A stretch of 64,000 nt of DNA from Candidatus Latescibacterota bacterium (GTDB lineage: Bacteria; Latescibacterota; UBA2968; GCA-2709665): NCBI GenBank assembly GCA_965237675.1, contig OZ250150.1:1120001-1184000 (forward strand). Direction: 5' to 3'. Shown here piece after piece: positions 38,608-41,344 of the stretch. The translations under genes were made by a program, and so were the position numbers. Below the pieces are notes generated by a model. It saw only the letters and a list, made by a program, of their open reading frames with translations, was not told the origin of the DNA and searched no databases. Every line of letters starts with the position of its first letter. Within the stretch, counting starts at the first letter, position 1.

Positions 38608-38972
38608 CAATGCCCCCGAATTCGCCGGGCAATGTCCGCCCGTTCCTGTTCCAGTCTCTGAGCAAGGCTTTCTAACTTTTCGTGATAGCTAATATCAACC
38701 TGGCCATTGAGTAGACACTTGCCAAGCGCTTTCAGGCCGACGAAGGGGTCGCCGGTGTTTGACCGAAGCAAGCTGTCCAGGGTCAGCGCTTCAACGGATT
38801 GGGATTTGAGACCCTGATCGCTGGCATCGACAAGAAGCTGACCGAGTTTCAACTGATCTGGATCCGGCGAAAAAGTTCCGCCCTCTTCAAGGCGTTCAAT
38901 TACCCTGTCTATCAAGCTGCCATATTCCTCCACATCGGCGTAAACCCCCCTCAGCAAACTCAAATCACTCAT
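38607..38972 (-). CDS. 121-aa hypothetical helical protein in the pAgo operon
   Basis: ATGA overlap with the pAgo stop, GGAGG RBS, TGATG overlap with the next gene. Confidence 0.8.
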   Translation of the reverse strand: MSDLSLLRGVYADVEEYGSLIDRVIERLEEGGTFSPDPDQLKLGQLLVDASDQGLKSQSVEALTLDSLLRSNTGDPFVGLKALGKCLLNGQVDISYHEKLESLAQRLEQERADIARRIRGH

Positions 38973-41344
38973 TTTACGACCTCCTCCTGAAGATGGGCAC
39001 TTGCAAACTCGATGGCGTCTTGATCGTATTCCGCGGCTTCGTCGAACAGGCTGCGATCACATAACTTGATCGAGACCGGCAGACGCGTCGCACCTTCCGG
39101 GCGAGTCCAAGTCAGACAGCTAAGTGAAAAAACATCGGACAGGCAATGTTCGAGGGGCATTTCACCAGCCGCGCGGCGGACATGTAGTGGATTGGACGTC
39201 CCCGGAATCCAAAATGGTCTTCCGGTTGTACTTACGAAGCCTTCGTTTGGAGCAGTTTGAATCCAATTTCCGACCAACGGGTTCTCGACATTGATCCCGT
39301 GGGCGTTACCTGAAGGCTTCACATCAAACAGCCGCAGTGGTGCTGGCGCGGACTTGGCTATTTCAACGACTGTGAGCTGCCAGTCCTGGTCGAGTTGCCC
39401 TTCTATAGATAGCCGCCGACATGCTTCTTCTAGCCCTTTGATTTCCGACGGCCATGTCCGTCCGTCGCGATGCACCACGACATGTTTTGGGCGATTGCTC
39501 AAATGGTGTTTTTCTTGGCGGATGAGATCACTCACGAACTGTGTAACTTGATTCTTTAGCAATTGTTCTTTTTGACGGGATGAACTCGTGGAAAGTCTAA
39601 TTATCTCACCTCCATTTGCAATCATCGTGAAGGCAGCGGTGTTATTCTTGACGTCAATCCCGATCACTACATCAGCATGTAACGGTTTATCGAGAATAAA
39701 CGGCCATTTACCATTGGTGAGTAGAATCTTATTGAGCGCGACGTTGCGAAGGTAAGCGAGGAAACGGGCGCGCTCACTTTCCTTTAATCTGTAGCTTGTT
39801 TCGTCCTTTATTGTTAAACTCGCGTACGACTTCCTTGCCATTTGCGTGTGAATAACAGCTGCGTTCAGCCCGAATACATCTGGAAATTCCTTTACGGTCC
39901 ACGCCACCAGTTGATCTTCAGATCTTGTCCGGCGATCATAACGATGCACCATTACGAGAGCGTAGCCTGGCCTGACTCTGGCAGTTTCAACTGCCTTTCT
40001 GATCGCACTCGTCTGACCGACGAAATCACGTTTGAAATTAAGGTCGTCATATACTATCACGTAAGGATTGTAACCACCTCCGTCGGGATAGAGGTTTTCA
40101 ACCTGTTTTCTAAGGTCTTCGAGAAACTTCGGACCATAGCTATTCTCAACACTCTTGGGTAGCACGAGGTATTGCCGATCCAGGAAGTTCTTCACGAAGA
40201 AACCCGCGTTCTCGTCCCCCAATAATGCTAGCCTCTTTCGCCCATAATCTTTAATTGCTAAGTCCGCATCGCGTTCTTTGTCTACAAGGCGTAGCGTTAC
40301 ACCATTTCCAAAACGCAAGTCAGGTGGTAAGAACGGTTTCGTTGTTATACGCCCCGGACAATCCGAAACCGAGAGATTGGCGTCTCTGACCCGCACGCGA
40401 CTCAGAAACATCTTAACGAGTCGTTTAATCTGACTGTGCCGTACTTTAGGTTCTATAACCGTCTCGTGTTGATATTTGGCGCCCTCTCGGGTGTGCGTAT
40501 CTTCGACTAGATGGCAGAGCGCTGCTGGTGCTGAACGTTGTTCCGGTCCATTTGTGCGATAATAAATCGCAGCACCATCTGGCGATAGATTTGCGATCGA
40601 TGGAGGTACCGGTTTGGGTGAAGTTCTGTTTAGATAATCGATCAAACTAACCACTTCTCTCTCAAGTGGTATCGAGGGAGTGCCGATATCCATATCGACA
40701 AGGCCGGAGAGAGTAACCTCGAACCAATTGCGTCCCATCTTATAGACGCATGATCGACCTTTGAGCTCGTTGATCTGCTCTCGCTTCGCTCCCGTTGGTA
40801 GCGGAGATCTCGAGACGAGTTTACGCCGAAGATCTGCTACAAGGCCAAAACCACCCTCTGGGTGTAATACGGTACGCATAGCGAAGCCTTCGTAAAGGTC
40901 AATCTTGCCCAGTTTTTTCTCCGGTTTCTTAAAAAAGAATGGCTGTCCAGCTCCTGGCTGCCAGAGGCGCGAATCCTTCCAGAGCACTCCCTGAAAAATA
41001 AACTGAAGGAAGCGTAAACGGACGGGGTCGAGATCCGGATCGGTCGTTGTGAAATCAAGATCTATTGTCTCTCGAGTGTCTTTCAACGTAACGACGACGC
41101 CAACAAGCATGACAAGATTTGGCGGATCCCCATATCCGGTTGGAATTGCCAAAAAGGCCTCGCTCTTCCTGTCGTAGGTAGTCACCGGTGCCTTCATCTG
41201 AAAGCTCAACTGCCGGATGAGCCGTTGTACATTGGCATAATAGTCTAACCCATCTCTTTGCAGACCAGCGATTTGGTACAGACGGTATGTTGAATTTAAC
41301 GCATCTAAGCCATCAATGCGAAAGCAATTCGTTTCAATAGACAT
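38969..41344 (-). CDS. ago: long prokaryotic Argonaute (791 aa), catalytic tetrad intact
   Basis: PIWI motifs VIGIDV (D), QKEQLL (E), VVHRDGR (D), VEIAKS, GTSNPL, LSCLTW and RLPVSIKLCDR (D); start ATG 41344 (MSIETNCF) has a GGAG RBS and overlaps the cas4-like stop; the ORF-track extension to 41467 runs through the cas4-like tail into the IS. Confidence 0.95.
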   Translation of the reverse strand: MSIETNCFRIDGLDALNSTYRLYQIAGLQRDGLDYYANVQRLIRQLSFQMKAPVTTYDRKSEAFLAIPTGYGDPPNLVMLVGVVVTLKDTRETIDLDFTTTDPDLDPVRLRFLQFIFQGVLWKDSRLWQPGAGQPFFFKKPEKKLGKIDLYEGFAMRTVLHPEGGFGLVADLRRKLVSRSPLPTGAKREQINELKGRSCVYKMGRNWFEVTLSGLVDMDIGTPSIPLEREVVSLIDYLNRTSPKPVPPSIANLSPDGAAIYYRTNGPEQRSAPAALCHLVEDTHTREGAKYQHETVIEPKVRHSQIKRLVKMFLSRVRVRDANLSVSDCPGRITTKPFLPPDLRFGNGVTLRLVDKERDADLAIKDYGRKRLALLGDENAGFFVKNFLDRQYLVLPKSVENSYGPKFLEDLRKQVENLYPDGGGYNPYVIVYDDLNFKRDFVGQTSAIRKAVETARVRPGYALVMVHRYDRRTRSEDQLVAWTVKEFPDVFGLNAAVIHTQMARKSYASLTIKDETSYRLKESERARFLAYLRNVALNKILLTNGKWPFILDKPLHADVVIGIDVKNNTAAFTMIANGGEIIRLSTSSSRQKEQLLKNQVTQFVSDLIRQEKHHLSNRPKHVVVHRDGRTWPSEIKGLEEACRRLSIEGQLDQDWQLTVVEIAKSAPAPLRLFDVKPSGNAHGINVENPLVGNWIQTAPNEGFVSTTGRPFWIPGTSNPLHVRRAAGEMPLEHCLSDVFSLSCLTWTRPEGATRLPVSIKLCDRSLFDEAAEYDQDAIEFASAHLQEEVVK

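Follow-up and report, generated by a model that had tools for sequence, protein, structure and literature searches.

The genes described here lie in a window of 64,000 nt, the whole stretch of DNA analysed, taken from contig OZ250150.1 (positions 1,120,001 to 1,184,000 of the forward strand, assembly GCA_965237675.1) of a Candidatus Latescibacterota bacterium; coordinates below are positions in this window. Its minus strand carries, in this order, genes for a helix-turn-helix (HTH) regulator, a Cas4-like nuclease, a prokaryotic Argonaute (pAgo) and two proteins named here p121 and p384, with an insertion sequence (IS) of the IS1380 family between the nuclease and the pAgo. We consider it very likely that the locus holds an intact pAgo of the group of PliAgo, from Pseudooceanicola lipolyticus, within a horizontally acquired five-gene cassette that was split by the IS and most likely crippled. 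The original prediction had treated the pAgo as a lone gene, overlooking both the split of its partner nuclease by the IS1380 element and the conserved gene pair downstream.

The pAgo gene (38969-41344, minus strand) is an open, intact reading frame of 791 aa, the size that had been predicted, and starts at ATG 41344, with the Shine-Dalgarno-like stretch GGGAGAAG just 5' of it. A longer TTG-started open reading frame (ORF) listed to 41467 was rejected as the gene, as it extends into the insertion sequence. The Piwi domain was located by Pfam at residues 529-760, and the protein matched the PADLOC pAgo_II model PDLC02382 from end to end with 1026 bits. When the sequences of the PDB were searched with phmmer, the best matches were the PliAgo entries 7r8f, 7r8k and 7r8h (E from 4.8e-208 to 8.5e-207; residues 1-785 of the query aligned with 1-784 of the chain), followed at lower ranks by 8xih and 9wmd (1e-55), VbAgo (5e-25), KmAgo (1.5e-7), CbAgo 6qzk (2e-6) and AaAgo (3.5e-5); of these, 7R8F and 9WMD are structures cited in the papers on PliAgo and MbpAgo, respectively. 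Compared by BLASTP with the genomic copy of P. lipolyticus (locus L019), the window protein showed 321 identities over 788 residues (41%) with 3 gaps, and its full-length long-pAgo architecture was colinear with that of PliAgo. Judged by sequence, the match to the PliAgo group is far above chance level, and the resemblance to PliAgo that had been proposed is borne out by the search. The motifs quoted in the original prediction (LWQPGAGQPFF, HPEGGFG, YKMGRNW, GIDVKNN, QKEQ, HRDG, KLCD and LFDEAAEYD, and for the MID region DQLVAWTVKEF, AAVIHT and ALNKILLTNGKWPF) are all present in the translation. The further suggestion of a new programmable RNase went too far: the class has been known since 2022, at least 164 clusters (90% identity) match at E<=1e-20, with relatives up to 76% identical to the window protein (word-indexed search), and by its sequence the protein is a further PliAgo-type enzyme and no new type of RNase.

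Residues involved in catalysis and guide binding were assigned with the PliAgo numbering given in PMC9360449, transferred through the phmmer and BLASTP alignments. The DEDD tetrad of PliAgo (D563, E592, D626 and D762) aligned with D564, E593, D627 and D763 of the window protein, which are the four residues that had been picked out from the sequence alone. The four contacts to the 5'-phosphate of the guide ('RHSY'; R467, H498, S501 and Y530 in PliAgo) correspond to R468, H499, M502 and Y531, and in both proteins the positions of the canonical R/K/K are taken by neutral residues (A479, C483 and G542 in PliAgo; V480, V484 and T543 here). The lysines K565 and K759 of PliAgo, described in PMC9360449 as group-specific and adjoining the first and last residues of the tetrad, are present as K566 and K760, and the proposed RNA contacts R473 and K663 as R474 and K664. 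In an alignment of 19 sequences, which included the window protein and spanned 42-76% identity to it, H499, Y531, D564, K566, E593, D627, K760, D763 and R474 were invariant; among the 5'-phosphate contacts of the group, PMC9360449 reports absolute conservation only for the His and the Tyr. The protein thus combines the tetrad, the RHSY-type pocket and the two lysines of the PliAgo group, and its MID pocket reads as non-canonical exactly as in PliAgo; what the original prediction had noticed as the lack of the usual Y-K-Q-K pocket is the non-(Y/H/R)KQK pocket of this group. From the intact tetrad, the PliAgo-type pocket and the homology, DNA-guided cleavage of RNA with a one-nucleotide register shift, between 9' and 10' for 5'-P guides, is the activity to be expected, and we consider it likely: the pAgo would bind 5'-phosphorylated small DNA guides in an Mg-independent non-KQK MID pocket and cut complementary RNA.

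A scan with one genome per species revealed 62 loci with such a pAgo across many phyla. A quick maximum-likelihood tree of 52 rows was built from them (no outgroup, and no rows of the PnyAgo group or of DNA-guided, DNA-targeting (D-D) pAgos), ten loci in which the ORF was shortened, interrupted or of odd length being left out. In this tree the window pAgo and PliAgo belong to one clade of 23 rows, with a Shimodaira-Hasegawa-like approximate likelihood ratio (SH-aLRT) support of 100. Within it, the window protein was grouped with two metagenome-assembled genomes (MAGs) of Latescibacterota (SH-aLRT 95), this group being nested among MAGs of Nitrospirota, Binatota and Poribacteria (SH-aLRT 97) and a Caldilineaceae MAG falling just outside. 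The terminal branch of the window pAgo is 0.25 long, compared to 0.09 and 0.11 for its sisters. Candidates for the PnyAgo group obtained with the PADLOC model PDLC02383 from 301 Bacteroidota genomes were rejected as such, since the three matches (292-341 bits) were PliAgo-type cassettes with HTH, nuclease and p384. As a divergent homologue (41%) from a sub-clade without a characterised member, the window pAgo could be useful for the screening of RNA tools.

The gene order and spacing of the cassette were the same at the 62 loci when these were searched by tblastn with the five proteins of the window, the locus of P. lipolyticus included, and two more Bacteroidota genomes carry the same cassette. 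The nuclease gene was kept beside every pAgo of the group, and the HTH gene was found 5' of the nuclease at 56 of the 62 loci; a 57th match, in L058, has the opposite orientation and is some 5 kb off. Directly upstream of the window pAgo the two genes are present as in the operons of the PliAgo group, with the nuclease gene split by the IS. A p384 homologue was present at 57 loci, which are all those with enough DNA downstream, as at the other five (L011, L033, L041, L055 and L057) the DNA stops before the position of p384. With tblastn, homologues of p121 were recognised at 36 loci, of which 34 were retained as ORFs, and in 21 of the other 23 loci examined an ORF of 115-127 aa that aligns with the p121 relatives fills the gap of about 350 nt; in the gaps of the two others, L026 and L061, no p121-like ORF was found. 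At the P. lipolyticus locus these genes are a 117-aa ORF (10367-10720) and a p384 homologue (10725-11879) with 32% identity. The association was also evident from the opposite direction: a metagenome scan seeded with p384 gave 487 relatives, of which the best 80 were kept, and of these, 66 loci had 700 nt or more of DNA upstream of p384, every one of them with a PliAgo-type pAgo there, nearly always at a distance of a few hundred nt. In three genomes scanned whole, the single p384 homologue was beside the pAgo.

The cassette is headed by the XRE-family HTH gene (43967-44326, minus strand), which encodes 119 aa from ATG 44326 and matches Pfam HTH_19/HTH_3 (E 6e-12); the listed ORF extends to TTG 44362, inside the promoter, and ATG 44326 was preferred from the layout of the relatives. 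A strong promoter-like site of the sigma-70 type with 11 of 12 consensus bases (44334-44362, minus strand; TTGACA, 17 nt, TATATT) precedes it, its -10 hexamer ending 7 nt 5' of the ATG, and the sequence TTAGCA is repeated, once after the -35 and once after the -10. The layout TTGACA...TTAGCA...TTAGCA..ATG was found in 10 of the 11 relatives compared (L010 differs), and within the cassette this conserved site was found only 5' of the HTH gene. The TTAGCA repeats may be an operator, the spacing from the -10 to the ATG suggests a leaderless transcript, and the whole putative promoter looks like that of an autoregulated, leaderless operon, in which the HTH protein would control its own cassette.

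The cassette genes have a G+C content of 0.47-0.53 compared to 0.59-0.62 in the flanking genes. The pAgo is 74% identical to the copy in a Latescibacterota MAG, whereas the citrate synthase of the window is only 47% identical to that of the same genome; the best identity for this enzyme among the five genomes tried was 59%, with a Caldilineaceae MAG. The low G+C content and the discrepancy between the two identities therefore mark the cassette, as far as sequence can tell, as horizontally acquired. The closest relatives of the pAgo come from MAGs of Poribacteria, Latescibacterota, Entotheonella and Binatota, phyla that are frequent sponge associates. On one side the cassette is bordered by a DUF123 gene (36832-37455, minus strand; Pfam E 1.4e-15), which directly abuts the stop codon of p384 and is probably a resident gene, its G+C content (0.59) being host-like; its product gave no match in PADLOC, NCBIfam or PHROG. 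On the other side, just 5' of the promoter-like site, there is an ORF of 80 aa with a DUF433 domain (44531-44773, minus strand; Pfam E 2.6e-25), a kind of protein that is often part of toxin-antitoxin pairs, and beyond it an ankyrin-repeat protein (44883-45689, minus strand; Ank_2, E 4e-22), encoded by a type of gene common in host-associated bacteria. Both the DUF433 ORF and the DUF123 gene were rejected as members of the cassette, as they had no counterpart at the 62 loci. No tRNA gene was found in the window between 30000 and 50000 when looked for as an island border.

The nuclease gene (43118-43967, minus strand) matched the PADLOC model Aga_Cas4-like_Nuc (375 bits) and Pfam PDDEXK_1, and encodes an ACE2-like PD-(D/E)XK protein of which the native codons 1-283 are followed by 12 IS-encoded codons and a stop at 43080. 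Its orphaned 3' end is found on the other side of the IS (41334-41429, minus strand), still in frame, with the cysteine motif C-x2-C-x5-C, overlapping the pAgo start and containing the Shine-Dalgarno sequence of the pAgo. In the intact relatives (L001-L015) the nuclease has 313 aa with C-x2-C-x5-C at its end, and the last 11 nt of its gene are shared with the start of the pAgo gene; residues 283-313 of the L001 nuclease match window positions 41337-41429; thus, the last 30 codons of the gene survive undecayed and in frame between the IS and the ATG of the pAgo. Among 53 intact relatives, C14, D179, D193-W-K195, Q207, Y211, C297, C300 and C306 are each conserved in at least 95%. The window ORF keeps D179, D193-W-K195, Q207 and Y211, corresponding to the D-DxK and QxxxY motifs, and the first cysteine, C14, but lacks C297, C300 and C306. 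In Cas4-family ACE proteins, one N-terminal and three C-terminal cysteines hold a Fe-S 'iron staple' on which local structural integrity depends, according to the text of PMC12094033, which also gives 313 aa as the mean length of ACE2. As its three C-terminal Fe-S cysteines are cut off, the window nuclease is very probably disabled. No second copy of the nuclease or of the pAgo was found in the genome searched, and the L001 nuclease gave only a chance match in the PDB sequences (E 0.14).

The interrupting element (41430-43117, plus strand) is 1,688 bp long, carries a transposase gene at 41510-42874 (plus strand) and is bounded by 13-bp inverted repeats, of which 11 bases match; its ends were set by comparison with 11 other copies. 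The transposase scored 383 bits against the NCBIfam model NF033539 IS1380 (cut-off 180) and matched Pfam DDE_Tnp_1_4 with E 2e-156. The 4-bp flanks ATAG (41426-41429) and CTAG (43118-43121), which share three of four bases, are presumably a target-site duplication; 10 of the 12 IS copies compared have two identical flanks of this kind, the window copy and that of L069 differing at the first base. The element thus has the DDE transposase, terminal inverted repeats and short target duplication of the IS1380 family. The genome contains another 13 complete copies listed as 100% identical, along with several of 83-98% identity and numerous fragments, and in run X1 the IS reached a depth of about 1000-1400 against about 65 for its flanks (roughly 16-20 times). 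The IS has therefore been active recently, in a burst. Both of its junctions with the cassette were present in contigs of runs from two studies. A contig of depth 2 in run X5, joining 41398 to 43120 without the IS, was rejected as an empty site, as its 29 differing letters match the spacer of relatives and point to a related organism.

Several further observations were made on the element and on the assembly around it. Two copies lie about 280 nt apart in the same genome (G000:C1:608773-610425 and 610704-612361), and pairs of matches were found repeatedly in which about 145 nt of the IS left end (76-83% identity) are followed some 320 nt further on by about 34 nt of the right end (1545997-1546135 with 1546454-1546487, 1546904-1547044 with 1547333-1547366, and 1468351-1468495 with 1468822-1468855, all on G000:C1). 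These pairs look like non-autonomous derivatives of about 490 bp, similar to miniature inverted-repeat transposable elements. A contig joint from 43123 back to 41422 was present in all four runs at roughly the depth of a single copy (58.8, 4, 12.8 and 2.04) and would fit either two abutting copies in the genome or the junction of an IS circle. Another joint, from 39203 to 43918, was seen in run X7.

In the sequence of events that we consider most likely, the IS would have entered after codon 283 of the nuclease, removing the three Fe-S cysteines and replacing the overlap between nuclease and pAgo by 1.7 kb of oppositely oriented IS, while the ORFs of pAgo, p121 and p384 stayed intact. In intact cassettes the Cas4-like nuclease would supply or process the DNA guides of the pAgo; a role of this kind has been proposed for PliAgo-type systems (PMC9360449), and a guide role is reported as shown for ACE1 (PMC12094033). 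In this genome that first enzymatic step would be broken and the rest of the cassette probably poorly expressed: most likely the nuclease no longer works, and expression of the genes behind it requires read-through or a fortuitous promoter. Loss of nuclease function and a polar effect on expression are what we infer here from the position of the IS.

A number of facts do not sit easily with this picture of a crippled PliAgo-type cassette. With its D-DxK, Q and Y motifs still in place, the truncated nuclease could retain some activity, and the flanks of the IS are unlike at one of their four bases. On the side of expression, the Shine-Dalgarno sequence of the pAgo is preserved, no terminator-like site was found on the minus strand between 41200 and 44700, a stretch that includes the IS, and the left end of the IS has a weak promoter-like site (41510-41481, minus strand; TTGTTA, 18 nt, CATAAT; 9 of 12 consensus bases) that faces the pAgo. 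Together with the ORFs of pAgo, p121 and p384, which are intact with all family-invariant residues, and with the persistence of the insertion allele in samples of two studies, these features would also be expected if the pAgo were still functional in its host, transcribed by read-through or from an outward promoter borne by the IS and using guides from other nucleases, in a cassette that was rewired instead of broken. This is possible, although we doubt it: the 100% identity of the IS copies and the undecayed tail of the nuclease mean that the ORFs may be intact simply because the event was recent, the conserved promoter-like site lies 3 kb upstream, beyond the IS, and the nuclease accompanies all pAgos of the group, which argues for its being required (62 loci; see also the Discussion of PMC9360449). 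As for the activity of the pAgo itself, an identity of only 41% to PliAgo leaves room for other guide or target preferences, one of the four 5'-phosphate contacts is changed (S501 to M502), and, as the tree has no outgroup, the grouping with PliAgo over the PnyAgo and D-D groups rests on E-values, hidden Markov model scores, signature residues and the operon. The determinants of RNA over DNA have not been mapped to residues, the choice being located at the cleavage step (PMC9360449), and the protein might therefore be PliAgo-like with another specificity, such as DNA-guided cleavage of DNA or of mixed DNA and RNA targets, as in KmAgo and MaAgo. We regard this as very unlikely, since all four proteins tested in PMC9360449, two from each group of DNA-guided, RNA-targeting (D-R) pAgos, were strict DNA-guide/RNA-target enzymes, since the pair of PliAgo and RslAgo would seem to bracket the family (the tree holds branches of Alphaproteobacteria and Bacteroidota; RslAgo is absent from it and was placed by inference), and since the group-specific K566, K760, R474 and K664 are conserved. 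An intact PliAgo-type pAgo in a probably disabled cassette thus accounts best for the locus.

The window is not the only case, as four other cassettes among the 62 loci are interrupted by mobile elements or inserts. L014 has a pair of rve integrase and AAA_22 proteins (IS21-like) inside the nuclease gene (2583-8001); L017 has a DDE_Tnp_1 transposase in the nuclease gene (5686-7289) and a Mutator-family (IS256-like) transposase in the pAgo (9314-11706); a Mutator-family (IS256-like) transposase lies between p121 and p384 in L012 (10723-12292); and an insert of about 0.9 kb, to which no family was assigned, interrupts the pAgo of L029 (9242-11305). With the window, these cases indicate that PliAgo-type systems are repeatedly inactivated in nature, which fits a costly system and could equally reflect IS-rich genomes.

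The last two genes of the cassette follow the pAgo with overlapping ends. That of p121 (38607-38972, minus strand) encodes a protein of 121 aa predicted to be helical, and its start overlaps the pAgo stop (ATGA); that of p384 (37456-38610, minus strand) overlaps the p121 stop with its start (ATG 38607 being an alternative) and encodes a protein with a three-helix bundle at its N-terminus and a zincin-like domain after it. No match was found for either protein in Pfam, PADLOC, NCBIfam or PHROG, a profile of p384 retrieved nothing from the PDB sequences at E<=10, and the search of 42 p384 members against Pfam at E<=1 gave scattered chance matches and no peptidase family. In an alignment of these 42 sequences, with identities down to 32%, the residues H156-E157-x-x-H160 and E225-x-x-x-D229 of p384 are invariant, that is, a gluzincin-type HExxH motif with an ExxxD motif downstream. 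We take this to be the gluzincin signature of thermolysin and neprilysin, with E225 and D229 presumably the third ligand and its partner by analogy. AlphaFold2 modelled p384 with a predicted local distance difference test (pLDDT) score of 96, in full length as well as over residues 95-384; the model starts with the three-helix bundle, to which a small sheet and then a domain of helices are joined. Foldseek found nothing in the PDB at E<=0.001 for the full model or for the domain 95-384; with VIA-align the full-length model was swamped by matches to the three-helix bundle (residues 1-94), and the domain was refolded alone. Its top match was then BepA (6sar; Z 7.9, root mean square deviation 4.1, 141 residues aligned), followed by PepO (9kn2; Z 7.5, 178 aligned), neprilysin (4cth; 7.3), Zmp1 (7.2) and ZMPSTE24 (7.1). 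The top 14 rows were all zinc metallopeptidases or their relatives, every Z being below 8, so that a common arrangement of the fold may be all that is shared. From this enrichment of metallopeptidases among the fold matches and from the invariant motif, p384 is, as the best reading, probably a zincin peptidase. Assignment to Peptidase_U49 (Lit) was rejected: the nearest named clusters of the ESM Atlas, which carry this family, stayed at 0.78-0.79, below the 0.9 line, and the genome gave no match to PF10463 at E<=10.

When 1.84 billion representative sequences were searched with a profile of p384, 309 relatives were retrieved at E<=1e-30 and 1,770 at the looser threshold of E<=1e-3, and among 150 listed relatives nearly all full-length proteins have the form of about 375-385 aa. 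Longer forms also occur: P0128 (609 aa, 38% identical to p384) has a caspase-like CHAT domain at its C-terminus (36.7 bits, cut-off 24), P0151 (632 aa) a sub-threshold CHAT match (21.1 bits) and P0158 (799 aa) a second HExxH further on.

A complex of p384 with p121 was predicted with an interface score (ipSAE) of 0.88 in the median run, against 0.00 in the best of three controls. Among the pairs used for calibration, 58 of 80 solved complexes attained the mark for this score, as did 2 of 110 mismatched pairs; these counts are only a rough guide here, where own alignments were used. The three runs agreed in no less than 91% of contacts, with a pLDDT of 86 or higher for the partner. In the model, residues 1-10 of p121 contact p384 at 127-134, 153, 156-157, 160 and 224-228, which form part of the edge strand and of the helices with HExxH and ExxxD, and the remainder of p121 is wrapped around the bundle and the helical domain. 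Therefore p121 is predicted to bind p384 with its N-terminus in the active-site cleft, which suggests that it could be a pseudo-substrate that holds the protease latent, or else a dedicated substrate. The two proteins would then form a latent zincin complex, acting either as an output, through signalling or abortive infection, or as an input, as an anti-repressor.

The second of these roles resembles an established pattern, in which HExxH metalloproteases are paired with XRE repressors (ImmR/ImmA, DdrO/IrrE). By analogy, p384 and p121 could be a regulatory module in which an ImmA/IrrE-type anti-repressor protease cleaves the XRE-HTH repressor and p121 acts as its inhibitor. An XRE-type HTH gene does head the operon, behind the conserved promoter-like site with the repeated TTAGCA, and PprI (8sln) is among the fold matches of p384 with Z 4.2. 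However, M48 and M13 peptidases outscore PprI (Z 7-8), no ImmA/IrrE match was found by Pfam in the 42 members at E<=1, and the CHAT fusions of some relatives are more typical of effector or signalling proteases, so that we consider this role unlikely. A comparable degree of doubt applies to the idea that p384 is no peptidase at all, its HExxH site serving some other metal-dependent activity or a structural role. The failure of Pfam, NCBIfam, the PDB sequences and Foldseek to provide a match would be in keeping with this, as would a best VIA-align score that may reflect nothing beyond a common arrangement, and HExxH has also been reported from non-peptidase enzymes. On the other hand, all five motif residues are invariant across the family, the best fold matches are without exception metallopeptidases or their relatives, and in the model the N-terminus of p121 lies against edge strand 127-134 and the HExxH helix, where substrates and pro-peptides of zincins lie. 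A zincin peptidase, with p121 predicted to lie in its cleft, is the reading that we retain.

Compared with known systems, the closest is the PliAgo group itself (PDB 7R8F-7R8K; Lisitskaya et al. 2022, PMC9360449), with which the window pAgo shares its length, colinearity, DEDD tetrad, lysines K566 and K760 and a non-(Y/H/R)KQK MID pocket with His, Tyr and Arg. The cassette of P. lipolyticus is also like that of the window, with the HTH and PD-(D/E)XK nuclease genes upstream and the ORF of about 117 aa and the p384 homologue downstream. The differences are the identity of 41%, the Ser to Met change in the MID pocket, the interruption of the operon by an IS and the origin, as the window sub-clade consists of MAGs of Latescibacterota, Nitrospirota, Binatota and Poribacteria, whereas PliAgo belongs to isolates of Alphaproteobacteria. 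The PnyAgo/MbpAgo group (PDB 9WMD) is alike in having long pAgos with DNA guides and RNA targets and a Cas4-like nuclease upstream, and differs, as described in PMC9360449, in its HKQK MID motif, Mg-dependent guide binding, cleavage at 10'/11' and a sigma-70 factor where the PliAgo group has the HTH protein; the window pAgo matches it far less well (8xih/9wmd, E 1e-55, against 5e-208 for PliAgo). APACE systems, as presented in PMC12094033, likewise combine a long-A pAgo with a Cas4-family nuclease carrying D-DxK and one plus three Fe-S cysteines. The intact relatives of the window nuclease have the mean length of ACE2, a likeness of length and motifs only; the characterised APACE1 targets DNA, and the window nuclease has had its C-terminal cysteines cut off by the IS.

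The text of PMC9360449 and the legend of its Fig. 1b mention no partners of the PliAgo group besides the nuclease and the transcription regulator, and no protease, peptidase or small partner of PliAgo-type operons was found described in the literature searched, which included the main text, apart from figures and supplements, of PMC9360449, PMC6299218 and PMC12094033. Within that literature the pair of p384 and p121 thus appears to be undescribed. Disruption by an IS is ordinary biology; the wider novelty lies in this zincin-plus-partner module. The paper of 2022 (PMC9360449) ends by asking what the cellular role of D-R pAgos is, and p384 with its partner provides a concrete hypothesis, a protease-inhibitor or protease-substrate pair working with an Argonaute. 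As a tentative extension, which we put forward with considerable reserve, PliAgo-group systems might have five components, the pAgo being wired to a latent zincin, p384, whose cleft is plugged by p121, so that recognition of a transcript would lead to proteolysis. If so, the output could be release or cleavage of p121 as a signal to the HTH protein, or cleavage of host or phage proteins as abortive infection, and the recurrent knock-outs by mobile elements, in the window and four relatives, would reflect the cost of the cassette. RNA-targeting guided nucleases encoded together with a protease, a small partner and a transcription factor, as here, are known from the CRISPR systems Craspase (Cas7-11/Csx29-Csx30) and type III CalpL-CalpT-CalpS. 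The CHAT domain found in a p384 relative is the protease fold of Csx29, and Lit, which acts on EF-Tu, is an abortive-infection protease that is comparable by analogy only, p384 having no sequence match to Peptidase_U49. Unlike the caspase-like and Lon proteases of Craspase and CalpL, p384 is zincin-like, and the PliAgo-type cassette would, if this proposal holds, be the Argonaute counterpart of both systems.

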